Assembly: GCA_963761305.1 (NCBI GenBank)
Contig: CAVXGK010000002.1
Location: 1,536,001-1,600,000 of the forward strand
Reading direction: 5' to 3'
Source of the DNA: an uncultured Gemmatimonadaceae bacterium
Lineage (GTDB): Bacteria > Gemmatimonadota > Gemmatimonadetes > Gemmatimonadales > Gemmatimonadaceae
Length of the DNA: 64,000 nucleotides
Of the stretch, positions 47,328 to 54,520 are shown piece after piece; the first letter of the stretch is position 1; each line of letters opens with the position of its first letter. Below the pieces are notes generated by a model. That model made no database searches and was not told where the DNA came from. It saw nothing but the letters and a program-made list of their open reading frames with translations. The translations under genes were made by a program, and so were the position numbers.

Positions 47328-49721
47328 TCAGAACGCCGCCTTCAGTCGCAGTTGGAAGCTGCGCGGCCGCCCGACGGACGGACCGCTGAAGAATGCGCCC
47401 TTGAGCAAGTACGTCTTGTCGAAGACGTTGTCGACGTACAGCTCGGGCGTGAACTGCGTCCCGCCGACTCGCATCTGGTATCCCGCGGCCGCGTTGAAAA
47501 TGGTGCTCGGCGCAACGTGGATGCCCGAGTTGAAGTCGAAGAGGCCCTGGCCCAGGCTGCAGTTGCAGCTGCTCGGGTCGACGCCGTTGGTGAGACCGGA
47601 CCCGTAGATCGCCGTGCCGCTCAGAAAGAAGTTGCTCGGCGAATAGGTGGCGCTCGCCACGATGGAAAGACGCTGATCGTGATCGAGGTCGAAGAAACCG
47701 CTCGGCGGCGCGCTGGGGAAGAATCCTCCCGTGATGGTGCCGTACCCGTATGCATGGTTGAGCGCGGCGTTGATGTAGCCCGAGAACGGTCCGGGCGGCC
47801 GCACCTCGAGCACGCCCTCGATTCCCGTGATGTGCACGTGCTCGATGTTCACGTCGGTGACGATCGCCGAGCCGGGCACTGTGTTGTCGTCGATTCCGGG
47901 GCTGCTCTCCTTGTGGTACGCGGAGAGCTTGGTCACCAGGCCCGCCTCGGGGAAACGCTGGACGAGCCCCGCCTCGAAGAAGTTGTCGCGCTCAGGCAGC
48001 GTCGGGAGATCCGCCTCTCCGCCCTGGGAGACACTCGTGATGGTGCGGAGATCTTCGATGTTCGTCGGCATGAACAGGCGGCCGTAGTACAGATATGCGG
48101 TCGTCGTCGGCGACGGGAAGAAGTTGATGCGGAATCGCGGGCTCACCTGGCTCTGGACCGGCGTATTGGGCGCGGCGTGCGAGTCGTACCGGACGCCCGC
48201 GCGAAACTCCACCCACTCGGCCGGTGCGTAAGAGCCTTGGCCGTACACGCCGATGTCGTGGCCAGTGAGGTCGACGCTCGACTGCGGCCCGAAGCTCGTG
48301 GCGTTGAAGGTCGAGAAGTCTTCGTGCCCGCTGGTTAGCGACGACAGCGTGCCGAACTTGAATTCCGTCTCGTGTGCGGGGCGAAACGCGTAGTCGGCCT
48401 TGATCCCGTAGATGTTCGCCGCGCGGTTCTCGCGGATGTTGTAGAGGTTGGTGTCCGGGAAAAACTGGAACGTCGGATCGTCAAGCGGATCCGGGTTGTA
48501 GCGGAGAGACGCATGGCGGTAGAACAGGCCTCCGAAGAAATCGCCGGCCGTCTGGCCGTCGTCGTTCGGCTCACCCACCTGGTGGTGCCAACCCAGATTG
48601 ACGAAGCTGTTCCCGTCGTTCTGATGGTCGTTCTGAAACGCGCCGCCGCTCGAATCGTACGGAACGGCGAACTGCGTCGTCGAGAGATTCCCTTCGAGCG
48701 TGAACACATCGTGCGTGCTCGGCGAGTACTGGAGCTTGCCGAAGCCGTAGTAGTCGGTGCCGTCGTTGTGAAAGTTGCTGATGCGATTGGTGCTCGGGTC
48801 GATGACGATCGGCTCGAGGCGCATGTCGCTGAACTGGCGCGAGCCGGACAGGAAGAAGCCCCACGGCCCGCTGTTGCTGCTGATCGTGCCGGCTTCACCG
48901 TTCGAGCCGGTCGGCCCCGAGACGGTCGACCCGGAATAGCCACCGCCATATCCGCTGAAGCTTCCGTGGAATCCGCCCGACGGAATCTTCGTCGCGACGT
49001 TGACGATGGCCGATTGCCGGCCGCCGTACTCCGCGTCCCAGCCGCCCGTCTGGAAGTTGATTTGATTCACGACCTGCGGGTCGAACAATTCGTTGAGCGA
49101 TCCCGAGATGCCCGGCGGCACGGGGACGCCATCGATGTAGTAGGTGTATTCGGCGTGCTGTCCGCGAATGTGGACCTCGCCGGTCGGCGCACGGGCGGCG
49201 CCGGCGATCGACTCCTGAAGAATCTGTGACGTCGTCAACGTCGGCGCGCCATGGAAGTCGTTCTGTTTGAAGACCTGGTCGCCGCTGCGCGTGTCGACCG
49301 TGACGGCTGCCGGCGCGACGATCTGCACTGCCTCGAGGTTCAAGCCGACCGGTGCGAGCGCGAACTTGAATTGCTGGGTGGCCGTGGCCGTCTGCGCAAT
49401 GACCAGCGGTTGCGAGATCGCTCGGTAGCCGATGACGTGGACCGAGATCGAATACGTGCCCGCGCCGAGATGGTGAATCGTGAATCCACCGAACGTGTTC
49501 GTCGTGGTGTTCGCCACGACGGCGCCGCCCTGGTTGGCGACCGTGACCTCCGCCGACTCGATGGGCTGACCATTCGTGCTATCGGAGACCACACCAGTCA
49601 CATCGACGCTCGCGACGGCGGGCACTCCGCGGTGGATCGGGTCTCGTGCCGCGAACGCGAGTTGGCTCGGCACCAGCAACGCGCAGAACGCGAACGCGTG
49701 GAGGAACGGCGGTCGTATCAT
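47328..49721 (-). CDS. TonB-dependent receptor (intact paralog)
   Basis: Signal peptide, carboxypeptidase-regulatory-like domain, plug HIRGQH..IDGVP..TGGWDAEYGG, GVRYD, C-terminal LRLKAAF. Confidence 0.9.
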   Translation of the reverse strand: MIRPPFLHAFAFCALLVPSQLAFAARDPIHRGVPAVASVDVTGVVSDSTNGQPIESAEVTVANQGGAVVANTTTNTFGGFTIHHLGAGTYSISVHVIGYRAISQPLVIAQTATATQQFKFALAPVGLNLEAVQIVAPAAVTVDTRSGDQVFKQNDFHGAPTLTTSQILQESIAGAARAPTGEVHIRGQHAEYTYYIDGVPVPPGISGSLNELFDPQVVNQINFQTGGWDAEYGGRQSAIVNVATKIPSGGFHGSFSGYGGGYSGSTVSGPTGSNGEAGTISSNSGPWGFFLSGSRQFSDMRLEPIVIDPSTNRISNFHNDGTDYYGFGKLQYSPSTHDVFTLEGNLSTTQFAVPYDSSGGAFQNDHQNDGNSFVNLGWHHQVGEPNDDGQTAGDFFGGLFYRHASLRYNPDPLDDPTFQFFPDTNLYNIRENRAANIYGIKADYAFRPAHETEFKFGTLSSLTSGHEDFSTFNATSFGPQSSVDLTGHDIGVYGQGSYAPAEWVEFRAGVRYDSHAAPNTPVQSQVSPRFRINFFPSPTTTAYLYYGRLFMPTNIEDLRTITSVSQGGEADLPTLPERDNFFEAGLVQRFPEAGLVTKLSAYHKESSPGIDDNTVPGSAIVTDVNIEHVHITGIEGVLEVRPPGPFSGYINAALNHAYGYGTITGGFFPSAPPSGFFDLDHDQRLSIVASATYSPSNFFLSGTAIYGSGLTNGVDPSSCNCSLGQGLFDFNSGIHVAPSTIFNAAAGYQMRVGGTQFTPELYVDNVFDKTYLLKGAFFSGPSVGRPRSFQLRLKAAF

Positions 49722-49831
49722 CAGAAACTCCGTTTGACGGGATGCGCAGGATCGCCGGCGGCGTGAAGACGCTCGGCTGTTCGTGCTTCGCATACGCTAC
49801 GGATTCGCCGCGGCGAGCCGCGTTGGAATTC

Positions 49832-49883
49832 AACGTCCGGCTGCGTGGCTCCCATGAGCGGTCATCGTATGGCCACAACTGGT
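49832..49883 (-). promoter_or_regulatory. LytTR-type repeats upstream of the intact receptor
   Basis: Minus strand ACCAGTTGTG, ACCGCTCATG, GCCGGACGTT at 21-bp spacing; -10 candidate TAGCGT at 49799-49794. Confidence 0.5.
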
Positions 49884-49935
49884 CGCGGCAACGCCCGCTC
49901 GCTGATGGCGAGGTGCGTGCGAGGCAGCGCGGTGC

Positions 49936-52329
49936 TCAGAACGTCGCTTTGAGCTTGAGCTGGAGGCTGCGCGGCCGGCCGACCGACGGTCCGCTGAAGA
50001 AGGCGCCTTTCAGCAAGTACGTCTTGTTGAAGAGGTTCTCGACGTACAGCTGCGGCGTCATCACCGAGCCGTGCACGACGAACGAGTATCCTCCCGCCGC
50101 GTTGAAAATCGTGTTCGGCGAGACGTGAATGCCGCTGTTGAAATCGAATAGCCCGGTGCCGAACGAGCAGTGGCAGTCCGCGGGATCGACGCCGTTGGTG
50201 AGGCCCGAGCCGTAGATGATCATCCCGCTCAGGAACAAGCGCTTCGGCGAATACGTGCCGCTGGCGACGATCGATACCCGTTGGTCGTGATCGAGGTCGA
50301 ATGCGCCCGTCGGCGGCTGCGTCGGAAAGAAACCGCCGGTGATCGCCCCGAAGCCGTAGGCGTGGTTCAGCGCCGCGTTGACGTAGCTTGAGAAGGAGCC
50401 CTTGGGGTTCAGCTCGAGCACGGCCTCGATGCCGGTGATACGAATGTGCGCGATGTTCACATCGGTCACGATCGCCGAGCCGGGGATCGTGTTGTCGTCG
50501 ATGCCTGGATTGCTGTCCTTGTGGTACGCGGCGAGTTTCGCAACGACGCCTGCGTCGCGGGAATCGTTGGACGACGCCCGCCTCGTAGAAGTTGTCGCGT
50601 TCGGGCACCGTCGGTTGAGCGGCTTCGCCGCCCTGCGCGACGCTCGTAATCGTGCGCAGGTCCTCGATGTTCGTGGGCATGAACAGACGGCCGTAGTACA
50701 GATACGCCGTCGTCAACGCCGACGGATAGAAGTTGAGCCTGATACGTGGGCTCAACTGGCTCTCCACCGGCGTGTCGGGAGCCGCGTGCGTATCGTACCG
50801 CAGGCCGACTCGTAGCTCGATGTCGCTCGATGGGAGAGTACACCGTCTGGCCGTAGAAGCCGACGTCATACCCGTTCAGATCGACGTTGGACTGGGGGCC
50901 GAGCGAGACGGCGTTGAACGCCGAGAAATCTTCGTGCCCGGTCGTCACCGACGAGAGCGTGCCGATCTTGAACTCCGTCTCGCGTTCCGGGCGGAACGCG
51001 TAGTCGACCTTCAGGCCGTAGATGTTGGCGCTGCGATTCTCAGAGAGGTTGAAGAGCGTCGTATCCGGGAAAAACTGGAACGCCGGGTCGTCGTTGGGAT
51101 CGGGGTCGAATCGCAGCGACGCGCGCCGGTAGAAGAGGGCGCCGAACACGTCACTGCGCGCTCGTCCAGCCGAGTCGATGTCGCCGATCTGGCGGTGCCA
51201 CCCGAGGTTCAGAAAGCTGTTGGCGTCGTTCTGATGATCGTTCTGGAAAGCGCCGCCGGTCGAGTCGAAGGGGACCTCGAACTCGGTCGTCGACAGACTC
51301 CCTTCGAGCGTGAACACTTCGCGTGTGGTACGCGTGTATTGCAGTTTGCCGAAGCCGTAGAGGTCGGTGCCGGAGTTGTGAAAGTTGCTGATCAACCCGG
51401 TGCGCGGGTCGATGACGACCGGCTCGAGCCGCATGTCGCTGAACTGACGCGTGCCGGAGAGGAAGAATCCCCACGGCCCGCGGTTGTCGCTGACAGTCGC
51501 CGACTGGCCGTTCGATCCGGTCGGCCCAGCCACGCTCGATCCCGTGTACCCGCCGCCGTACGCGCTCGCGTCGCCTTGAAACCCGCCTGTCGGGATCTTG
51601 GTCGTGATGTTCACGACGGCGGCGATGCGCCCGCCGTATTCGGCGTCCCATCCGCCGGTCTGAAAGGTGATGTGGTCCACGACGTCCGGGTCGAACAGCT
51701 CGTTCAGCGACCCGGAGATGCCGGCAGGCACCGGCACGCCATCCACGTAGAACGTGTACTCGGCGTGCTGTCCGCGGATGTGTACCTCGCCCGTGGGCGC
51801 GCGGGCGGCACCCGCGATCGAGACCTGAATGATCTGCGACGTCGTCGCCGCCGGCGCGCTGTGAAACGTGTTCTGCCGGAAGATCTGGTCGCCGGTTCTC
51901 GAATCCAACGTCACGATGGGCGCATGTCGTGATCTGCATGGCCTGGAGATTCAGTCCGATCCGGGACAGCGCGACGTTGAGCACCTGCGCGGCGGTGACG
52001 GCGGACGCAATGATGAATGGCATCCTCTCGGCGCGGAATCCGATCATGCGGACGCTGAGCGAGTAGGGACCCGGCGCGAGGTTGTGAACGGTGAAGGCGC
52101 CGAACGTACTCGTCGTCGTCGTCGCGACGACGGCGCCGATGTAATTCGCGACGCTCACCTGCGCCCCGGAAACGGGTTGCCCTGTCGCGCTGTCGGTGAC
52201 GACGCCCGTCACGTCGGCGTTGGCCCATTCGCGCGCGGAGTTTGAGTAGCGAGCTGCGTGTGCGCTCTGGCAAGGAATCACGAGCACGCCCACGGCGAAC
52301 AATCGGCACCACAGTCCCAGCCCCGACAT
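49936..52329 (-). pseudogene. TonB-dependent receptor paralog split by three frameshifts
   Basis: Four ORF pieces colinear with 47328..49721; shifts near 51924, 50832 and 50557; ends LKLKATF. Confidence 0.8.
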
Positions 52330-52438
52330 CGAAAACTCCGCAAAGGCCGAACGGAGCGGCTCGCCGGCGTCGATTCGCCCGTTGGCTGCCCTCGGCGGAG
52401 AAGGCTACCGATTCATTCCGGGGCGTCGCGTTGGATTC

Positions 52439-52511
52439 AACGTGCGGGAACGGACATCTCATGACCGGCCATTCCGCGCGAATGAACGGTCCAATGGTAG
52501 AGCTGAGCGGC
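52439..52511 (-). promoter_or_regulatory. Four LytTR-type repeats upstream of the frameshifted receptor
   Basis: Minus strand GCCGCTCAGC, ACCGTTCATT, GCCGGTCATG, CCCGCACGTT at 21-bp spacing; -10 candidate TAGCCT at 52407-52402. Confidence 0.55.
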
Positions 52512-52551
52512 AAACTCGAGGGTGAACGCGAACCCAACGCGCGCCTCGCGG

Positions 52552-52578
52552 GCTGCTGCAATGAAATGTTGCAGCAGC
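52552..52578. promoter_or_regulatory. Perfect inverted repeat, operator candidate
   Basis: GCTGCTGCAA-TGAAATG-TTGCAGCAGC. Confidence 0.5.
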
Positions 52579-52678
52579 GAACGCGAATGAGACTCCCAAC
52601 CTTGACGCGGCGCTGACGGGGCGAAGCTTCCATGTCGCAGCGACCATGGACCACTCGGCGTCGACCAGCGGACAGCCG

Positions 52679-53280
52679 ACTCCGACCATGCGACCACCGC
52701 ACCCCGAACAGGAGACGGGCGATGCCGACCGAAGTGCGCGCCGATGTCGAACAGCGGCCACGCGACTTGGCGCTGTTGCCAGTCGGGTTCGAACGTCGGC
52801 GAGGAGAGCGGTCGGTCTTGTCGGTCGACCGCGACCGAGGATCCAGTCGACGTCGAACACCCGTCAGACCAGCCCGAACAGCGGCCACCTCACTCGACCG
52901 ACGCTTTCATCTCGCTCCGAACATCGGCCAGCCGAGCGGCGCATGGATCCAGCTCACTCCGACCATCGGCCAGGCGACCGGTCAGGTGGTTCCATGTCAC
53001 TCCGATCACCCGACCGGTGAGCGGTCGCGTGGATCCAGATCACTCCGACCGTCGGCCAGGCGAGCGGTCGGGTGGATCCATGCTGTTCCGACCATCGGCA
53101 AGGCGAGCGGTCGGCGGATACAGCCTACTCCGAACGTCGGCCAGGCAACTGCGAACGTTGCGCGCCCTGCTGAACCAAGGTTCCACGCCACTCCGAACGC
53201 CGATCGCATCACCGCCACCACGGATCACCGCACTCCGAACGCCGCCCGGCGAACGAACCACATCTCCCACCTCACTCGGC
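52679..53280 (+). repeat. Degenerate tandem array, ~21-bp phase with 42-43-bp units
   Basis: YTCCGA starts at 52915, 52957, 53000, 53043, 53086, 53128, 53191 and 53233; weaker phased CGA cores extend back to 52683. Confidence 0.85.
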
Positions 53281-53290
53281 TGAGGCTTCC

Positions 53291-54046
53291 ATGAATCTCA
53301 GACAGGGCCGCACCCTACTGGCGTTCTATGCCGTCGATGTATTCCTCGACGCGTACCAGGCGCGCCTCCCCAAGACGACAGCGAGCGGCGCGCGCAAGCA
53401 ATTCGCCCGCACGCTCGCCGAGCTCGCCCTCCATGTTCAGACCCAGGCCGGCGCGCCGATCACGGCGCAGGGGCTCACCGCCGCGAAGGCGAAACAGCGC
53501 GCGGCGCTGGTTCGGGATTACCTGGCGCCGATCGCAAAAATCGCCAAACTCGAATCGGAAGCGCACCCGCCGCTCAAAGCACTCAAGCGCCTGCGCGGCG
53601 AACCGGCGTTGCAGAAACTGCTCGCCCACGCGGCCGGCATGGCCGTCATCGCTCAGGATTATCGCGAGGTCTTCGTCGCCGCCGGGATGCGGCCCACCTT
53701 CATCGAGGACATGACCGAGTCGATCGACGCGATCATGAACACCGCCACGGCGCGCACGGAGCGGGTCGGCGCGGGAAGCGGCGCGACCAAGGGACTCGAG
53801 ACAACGCTCGCCAAAGGCATGAAACAGAAACGGGTGCTCGATTCGTTCATTCGAACCGAGCTGAAGGACGATCTCACGCTGTTGGCGGCGTGGCGCACCG
53901 TTCAGCGGGTGGAAGGCCTGCCCGGCCGACGAAAGCGGCAAGATGATCGCAGTGCGTCGAGTGGGCCGCAGACCGCGTTGGCTGCGCCCGGCGATCTCCC
54001 GGTTCGCGAGCCGTCGCGGCTGCTGTCGGCGCCGGGGCAAGTCTGA
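53291..54046 (+). CDS. Hypothetical alpha-helical protein
   Basis: GAGG RBS; amphipathic helical 251-aa ORF ending LLAAWRTVQRV plus a low-complexity tail; no signal peptide. Confidence 0.8.
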   Translation: MNLRQGRTLLAFYAVDVFLDAYQARLPKTTASGARKQFARTLAELALHVQTQAGAPITAQGLTAAKAKQRAALVRDYLAPIAKIAKLESEAHPPLKALKRLRGEPALQKLLAHAAGMAVIAQDYREVFVAAGMRPTFIEDMTESIDAIMNTATARTERVGAGSGATKGLETTLAKGMKQKRVLDSFIRTELKDDLTLLAAWRTVQRVEGLPGRRKRQDDRSASSGPQTALAAPGDLPVREPSRLLSAPGQV

Positions 54047-54172
54047 CACTCAATTGGATGCACTGCAACCATATAGGCGGCCTGGGAGTAACAACGAGTG
54101 GACGCCTCCGCCCGTAGACGGTTGTGGCCGTCTAGCGCCTCGACTCGTCAAGGAATAGGCTTCCTCTTCAGA

Positions 54173-54520
54173 ATGACCCCTCCGTACCGACCCAGACGCC
54201 GGCATCCGCTGACGCTGGTCATCGCCTTTTTGGCGTTGATCGCGCAGGTGGCTGTCGCGTTGTCTCCGTTGGCTGAAGGCCGTCGGCCGGGGATGGCGTC
54301 GCACGTCGAGAGCACCGGGGTGAGGCTTCACTATTCGCACGACGAAGCCACGTGCGCCGCGTGTCAGGCCCGTTCGATTCACGGCACGCCGCGAGCCGCC
54401 GACGTCGGGTTTCGTCCGTCGAGCGAGGTCGCGACCGCCGTCTGTACGGCGAGTGTTCGCGTCGCCACGGCCGACCGTTTTTCCCAAGACAACCCCCGCG
54501 CGCCACCCGGATTGATCTGA
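54173..54520 (+). CDS. DUF2946/CruR-like leader peptide (signal helix, CxxC, C-terminal RAPP)
   Basis: RRRHPLTLVIAFLALIAQVAVAL, HYSHDEATCAAC, NPRAPPGLI-stop. Confidence 0.8.
   Translation: MTPPYRPRRRHPLTLVIAFLALIAQVAVALSPLAEGRRPGMASHVESTGVRLHYSHDEATCAACQARSIHGTPRAADVGFRPSSEVATAVCTASVRVATADRFSQDNPRAPPGLI

Follow-up and report, generated by a model that had tools for sequence, protein, structure and literature searches.

A helically phased repeat array and the gene of an unnamed family of predicted helical proteins as a likely two-part module in an uncultured Gemmatimonadaceae bacterium

Introduction

Plasmid iterons occur with Rep initiators, and partition centromeres with their own binding proteins, as in F sopC (12 x 43 bp) with SopB/ParB and in parC with ParR. 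REP, REPIN and BIME repeats pair with RAYT, and MITEs with transposases. Bacterial tandem repeats of 20-21 nt are of constant size and variable sequence, occur as several families per genome and are mostly non-coding (Subirana and Messeguer, PMC8161180). They have short conserved cores and a repeat length of two DNA turns, and the authors speculated about an unnamed protein whose polymerisation on DNA would depend on repeats of constant size (PMC8161180). Such repeats of fixed length and free sequence, with their polymerising protein proposed and left unnamed, are a published open puzzle; the main text of PMC8161180 appears to name no partner gene, and the words 'upstream' and 'Gemmatimon' are absent from it.

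The window analysed here is a stretch of 64,000 nucleotides from an uncultured Gemmatimonadaceae bacterium. It carries a cassette composed of a repeat array and the gene of a 251-aa protein (Table 1), and the array unit is a 42-43-bp dimer of a period of about 21 nt. Period 21 was the second commonest TRF period in the genome (96 rows) with many unrelated units, and 66 clusters of the period class were found. The genome thus has the families of one length and unrelated sequence that mark the constant-size 20-21-nt satellites, and the arrays appear non-coding, as most of those are (no codon phase, frame-breaking steps). Unlike the satellites in the main text of PMC8161180, the arrays here were tied to one gene family, to which 27 of the 49 strong arrays of the 21-bp period class in the genome could be traced. 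Over half of the strong arrays of one genome therefore trace to a single large unnamed family (6,684 representatives at 50% identity found with its profile), which gives a named candidate for the satellite partner. If the protein binds along the array as predicted, the unexplained satellites of 20-21 bases would gain a partner. The literature searched, mostly that available without subscription, contained no account of this pairing of gene and array. The gene-array module matched none of the known systems tested; the array class itself is already described in PMC8161180.

The cassette resembles iterons, sopC and parC in its helically phased direct repeats, its 43-bp unit with an internal dyad and its position beside the gene of a basic protein. 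However, neither Pfam nor fold comparison revealed a winged-helix, HTH, ribbon-helix-helix or ParB domain in the cassette protein. The cassette is also chromosomal and multi-copy, its unit sequence is not conserved and the family had no tblastn match in phages or plasmids. In contrast to partition centromeres the insert holds one gene only and no partition ATPase, and in contrast to iterons no AT-rich origin lies beside it; 13 chromosomal copies argue against an origin role, there was no Rep winged-helix match and the model contains long helices only. Scattered copies that lack the gene and often lie close to gene ends, together with fewer copies that have it, recall REP/RAYT and MITEs, but no Y1_Tnp gene was found in the genome, the cassette protein had no transposase or nuclease match and the ends of the copies are ragged. 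In addition, the units are tandem and phased, unlike the one conserved palindrome of REP. As opposed to CRISPR and TIGR guide arrays, units of young arrays are near-identical end to end, and no Cas or Nop domain and no Rfam match were found. Overall, each of these systems (iteron, sopC/parC, CRISPR/TIGR and REP/RAYT), in its generally known features, fails a defining feature here.

Table 1. Coordinates of the cassette and its features in the window
Feature	Position	Strand	Remarks
Insert carrying the cassette, approximate extent	52497..54063		Similarity to congeners ends and resumes at the flanks; the TonB-receptor and efflux genes on either side belong to the host
TGACG-N6-TGACG direct repeat, 11-bp spacing	52603..52618	+	Shared with orthologs L012 and L013, there at -744 and -734
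TTCCAT, candidate -10	52628..52633	+	9 bases past the direct repeat; TACCAT and TACCGT at equal offset in L012 and L013
Degenerate array part	52661..52911	+	(C/T)CGA(A/C)C cores spaced by multiples of 21-22 bp; phase shared with the main array (21.30 bp)
Main array	52912..53272	+	Eight 42/43/63-bp units, core CTCCGA(A/C)C
Gene of the 251-aa basic, predicted all-helical protein	53291..54046	+	Unnamed large family; domain of about 205 aa and disordered tail

Structure of the repeat array

The earlier note had described about 600 bp of degenerate repeats with spacings of 42, 43 and 63 bp, and this was confirmed by TRF, by the unit starts and by shuffling. TRF gave tandem repeats at 52908-53146 with a period of 43, 5.6 copies and a score of 231, and the array scored at period 86 was the highest of the 37 TRF rows in the window. 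The units started at 52912, 52954, 52997, 53040, 53083, 53125, 53188 and 53230 with steps of 42, 43, 43, 43, 42, 63 and 42 bp, and a ninth, weak core at 53273 supplied the last 42-bp step of the note. The periodic score of the array was 109, whereas 300 shuffles averaged 6.6 and reached 22 at most. Upstream of the main array, the weaker cores that had been reported at 21-22-bp steps were found back to about 52661-52682. The 13 cores at 52682-53235 were phase-locked at 21.30 bp (R 0.99, a value reached by 0 of 500 random placements) with a core pattern that was picked after the sequences were inspected. The CCGA-N3-TCGG dyad was present, but only in 5 of the 13 cores. The unit sequence of the window had one other copy in the genome, which refuted its origin as a genome-wide REP.

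The 43-bp steps were also found in short-read contigs (4 runs from 3 soil studies) that were gap-free over 52656-52962, 52966-53081, 53012-53096 and 53031-53179, these being separate contigs none of which spans the entire array. One short piece at 52915-52972 had 3 gaps and a loose end. Strain variants of the array in the short-read data were a net 42 and 170 bases shorter. Because independent contigs carried the steps gap-free and shorter variants occurred, the 43-bp steps are real and the unit number is variable; a sequencing-indel artefact was thereby ruled out. In 34 arrays, mismatches between adjacent units lacked codon phase (0.417 compared to a null of 0.435, with 7/5/35 differences by codon position in the CDS control), and with the 43-bp steps in independent contigs this upheld the proposal that the period is constrained at the nucleic-acid level. 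Orthologous leaders differed by whole units and by single bases.

A 7- or 14-residue repeat peptide could instead be encoded by the array, as an upstream ORF or as an N-terminal extension. This would agree with 21 bases being 7 codons and with 21.0 being the commonest best period in the leaders. In addition, 28/34 arrays are enclosed by a started ORF, something that GC-rich DNA permits, ORF 52632-53294 overlaps the start codon of the gene by ATGA, and several database proteins translate arrays in frame as heptads (P0180 being a plausible coiled-coil heptad). However, the 43-bp steps shift the frame, codon phase is absent, single-base indels and stops occur within family arrays and the peptides read through the arrays have no sequence in common. 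No Pfam match above cut-off was found for the ORFs overlapping the window array. Coding for a peptide is very improbable on these results, and the array is likely non-coding as judged from sequence.

Protein family

The ORF of the 251-aa protein, which had been called helical and unassignable, was confirmed and is predicted to be all-helical. The AlphaFold2 model from 26 sequences (pLDDT 86) contained helices only and a disordered tail, with two helices of 54-56 residues (33-88 and 137-190). The family had no match in Pfam, in PDB sequences or in the Foldseek search of the PDB that had been proposed for the predicted structure. IpaH rows in the PDB-sequence search (E 0.28 or more) were dismissed as chance. 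The PHROGs search returned nothing significant, its best match being weak and covering 2 of 60 members. DUF6261 (PF19775) was a lead only, with Atlas feature scores of 0.85-0.88 (0.88 between a family member and a cluster with 10% DUF6261), and the PF19775 profile had no match over cut-off in the genome or in any of the 60 aligned family members. Long database members of the family were array read-throughs or tails, and longer fused forms of the protein seem to be absent from the matches.

Residues 1-215 of the window protein have a pI of 10.3 and a net charge of +14, and the family medians are 10.3 and +9. The best conserved positions are F18, Q52, R70, P101, A121, G132, L141, A165 and W201. 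They look more structural than catalytic, and the family alignment showed no strongly conserved cluster of catalytic type.

The genome carried 13 full-length members of the family and one truncated member. The family was present in 17 of 41 relatives, and among 201 genomes of the phylum it occurred in 41, which belong to just two families. Its Atlas neighbours were mostly Gemmatimonadota; one match carried the name Vicinamibacterales, and a member was tentatively linked to a Bacteroidota cluster (0.94) and an Acidobacteriota model (TM 0.84). Differences in a paralog pair by first, second and third codon position were 7/5/35, and intact family genes are therefore under purifying selection.

Periodicity upstream of the homologs

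A total of 83 distinct loci was obtained after removal of 8 duplicates, of which 78 had 750 bases upstream and 5 were too short. Periodicity of the 21/42/63 type was over the 99th percentile of random genome windows in 45/78 upstream regions compared to 1/55 downstream, in a set with the window, ten paralogs from its genome and many close kin, which are not independent. The upstream check that the note had suggested for the homologs was thus passed by 45 of them, and its view of a two-part cassette was borne out.

Array unit sequences and cores varied between clades, and one leader can carry several unrelated arrays. The closest orthologs retained the core CCGAAC and the sequence between the cores diverged. 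The ortholog L013 had 12 cores phase-locked at 21.35 bp (R 0.97) and a gene-less copy of the window leader gave 21.3 bp (R 0.91), while the phase lock was not significant in the ortholog L012 (R 0.66, p 0.32). The period was retained between proteins only 20-30% identical, and it stayed with the gene family in two families of the order. Near-identical proteins followed partly different arrays at L002, L003 and L008, which disfavours strict sequence recognition. An intact array is dispensable for keeping the gene, since 33 of the 78 homologs were below the threshold and L012 was unlocked. Overall, array and gene family are coupled, and the best reading is that they likely spread within genomes as a two-part module read by DNA geometry.

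The array may also be a neutral minisatellite on a spreading cassette, with an ancestral 21-bp period renewed by in-register slippage and no reader. Fast unit turnover, several unrelated arrays per leader, whole-unit variation in copy number and the many homologs without a clear array all fit such an origin. However, slippage copies integer units, whereas in the divergent arrays a non-integer mean phase persists across 550-620 bp, and the retention of the period between distant proteins also speaks against it, so that a neutral array is improbable. A non-integer period through mixed 42/43 steps would be predicted by helical geometry, not by codons or simple slippage.

Leader RNA or DNA platform

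The earlier note had offered a structured leader RNA or a phased DNA platform, with the best units as stem-loops. The hairpin at 53040-53074 folded as written (-21.6 compared to -14.0 +/- 2.9 kcal/mol for shuffles), but it was the best unit and not a typical one, as only 2/13 window units folded better than shuffles (z < -1.64). The whole window leader had a z of -1.21. Shuffles were beaten by 0/11 units of the second copy, by 1/9 and 3/12 units of the orthologs and by 3/31 family arrays. Conserved secondary structure was not found across the homologs, most units folded no better than shuffles and the units of the orthologs did not align with one another; in this the cassette differs from structured cis-regulatory RNA. 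The Rfam search gave 4 matches, all with E 3.4 or more and far under the gathering score.

As an RNA, the leader would be a C-rich periodic transcript of 650 nt to which the basic protein binds and which serves as an attenuator, a Rho-loading tract or a scaffold, and leader-only copies would be stand-alone RNA genes. The family arrays are biased by strand (C 0.39, G 0.24) and the window has its one strong hairpin. The gene-less second copy of the window leader, about 70% identical at C1:1445454-1446115, begins beside the candidate -10 and stops 38 bases ahead of the start codon, and five other leader-only copies stop with ragged ends at -19 to -58 relative to the start codon; these extents also suit a transcript. 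However, folding was not kept, Rfam gave no meaningful score and the best period was 20.6-21.4 bp in 32/76 leaders with a clear signal (scan 19.5-23) with none at 22, the length of two turns of A-form RNA. Action as RNA is thus distinctly unlikely. A DNA platform is preferred because the hairpins are not kept and the best periods fall at 20.6-21.4 bp, and of the two options in the note it fits better.

B-DNA has about 10.5 bp per turn, and the mean periods would suit an array that is read as double-stranded DNA. We tentatively favour a multi-copy two-part module in which the adjacent protein binds and oligomerises along one DNA face of the array and controls its own leader. The reader would be this basic protein as a predicted helical rod of about one period's length, its helices of 54-56 residues spanning approximately 80 A compared to 72 A for 21.3 bp by our arithmetic. 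Binding set by geometry and a short clade-specific core would let the units turn over while the phase is kept; the protein would assemble in phase on the array and control its long leader, and the module would spread by copying with an enzyme acting in trans. Should spacing matter more than sequence to the protein, this would be an unusual mode of DNA recognition.

The non-integer phase lock in the window, in L013 with units that differ between cores and in the gene-less copy argues for reading of the array by the protein, as do the coupling of period and gene, the basic family and the lack of codon phase. Spread of the module is supported by genome-specific paralog clades, by copied decayed genes and by the absence of the cassette from its site in five congeners. 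Against reading by the protein, its predicted fold is unlike any solved nucleic-acid-binding protein (Foldseek), in-register slippage alone could propagate the period, the sub-threshold homologs and L012 lack the phasing, and the started ORFs and heptad readings of the arrays also count.

Promoter region and divergent genes

The proposed promoter TTGACG-N16-AAGCTT is present in the sequence at 52602-52629 but did not hold as such, as the part common to the window and both orthologs was TGACG-N6-TGACG-N9-T(A/T)CC(A/G)T (52603-52633) and not AAGCTT. Similarity to the gene-less copy starts just past it, at about 52634. The TGACG-N6-TGACG motif or its reverse complement was found upstream of 35/83 family loci. 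It likely serves the promoter of the leader as an operator or as an activator site. Spacing 6 was not enriched genome-wide (70 sites compared to 23-79 for spacings 3-10), and the case for the direct repeat as a promoter site therefore rests on position.

In other clades the 11-bp repeat was central in an inverted promoter-like module, often beside a divergent sigma-70 family gene. Inverted modules of approximately 170-450 bp with the central direct repeat lay between ECF sigma or PadR genes and arrays and also alone (L003, L005-L010, L015, L020 and L030; C1:1223364, C1:1093619 and C2:402413 in the genome). Sigma70_r4_2 was detected in 14/19 divergent ORFs hand-picked from 55 candidates, in one of the 14 just below cut-off. 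One clade (L005, L006, L037 and L051-L056) had extra RBS-like GGAGG motifs 250 bases ahead of the start codon, and between its arrays and genes lay a short upstream ORF that is conserved.

These divergent ORFs raise the alternative that the array is a phased platform for another protein (an ECF sigma with RNA polymerase, a regulator of the 11-bp repeat or a host nucleoid protein), with the helical protein as the regulated output. The promoter module with inverted copies and the 11-bp repeat is common ahead of the arrays, leader-only copies persist without the gene, and GAAC in the window core is reminiscent of ECF -35 elements. However, the divergent side of the window cassette has a TonB-receptor gene and no sigma gene, and no sigma gene was seen beside L013. 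The cores also vary among clades, which one host protein could hardly track, and in two families of the order the period accompanies this gene family. A reader other than the adjacent protein is rather unlikely on balance.

Insertion site, copies and spread

On the left, similarity to congeners ended at a point from 52224 to 52496; on the right, it resumed at 54064 in 6/6 loci examined. In five congeners a single contig carried both the TonB-receptor gene and the efflux genes, with the cassette absent between them, and the sixth locus had only the efflux flank. The interval in the five was a gap of about 360 bases in one, held a gene of about 600 aa in two and inserts of 7 and 14 kb in the other two. 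A link of the cassette to the TonB or efflux genes, between which the note had placed it, was ruled out by these five congeners. Across L104-L109 the cargo of the interval differed per congener and the right boundary was constant at 54064; the gene of about 600 aa in the interval of three relatives is missing from the window. Two of these congeners carried the ortholog at another place in the genome.

Among the 49 strong arrays of the genome, 10 precede a family gene, and 17 of the 39 others matched a family leader or CDS compared to 6/200 random windows. The paralogs grouped in genome-specific clades. Four decayed gene copies at four loci, 75-90% identical, had three 1-bp deletions and the 3' end in common and no codon phase; they were therefore copied after decay. 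No clear base bias for biased mutagenesis was seen in the decayed copies. At L011 (C1:1445360-1446220), the left flank of the gene-less copy resembles approximately 45 bases at the 3' terminus of the right-hand convergent gene, possibly a duplicated target, and such a duplication was not confirmed at the other copies. Octamer repeats, as candidate target sites, were seen at 4/29 copies compared to 6% of random windows. Tandem repeats of 8 bp are dispersed over the genome in about 100 TRF rows, most of which belong to three related units (42, 38 and 10 rows).

A further reading is a so far unrecognised class of mobile element without a known transposase or integrase fold. In it the rod protein, assembled on an array defined by a two-turn DNA period alone, would promote copying of the segment with the array, gene-less copies included, and most 20-21-bp satellites of these genomes, and possibly those of other phyla, would trace back to it. 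This is unlikely. The copies had no shared terminal repeat and variable 5' and 3' ends, unlike a classical transposon. If the protein also drives copying, the module would be a new kind of mobile element.

Four short period-20 arrays and one period-21 array lay at C2:3375880-3389768 with no match to the family leaders. A lone reverse transcriptase resembling a group II intron protein was found at C1:821086-821748 (-), with no apparent link to the module. In the window, a short ORF lay directly 5' of the efflux operon at 54174-54520 (+); it is conserved, contains the CxxC motif CAACQ and had no Pfam match over cut-off. Finally, a second TonB-dependent receptor gene at 49862-52329 (-) was in three overlapping frames (51151-52329, 50466-51914 and 49936-50469) and has an intact paralog at 47328-49793, the broken copy being either a frameshifted gene or the result of assembly indels.
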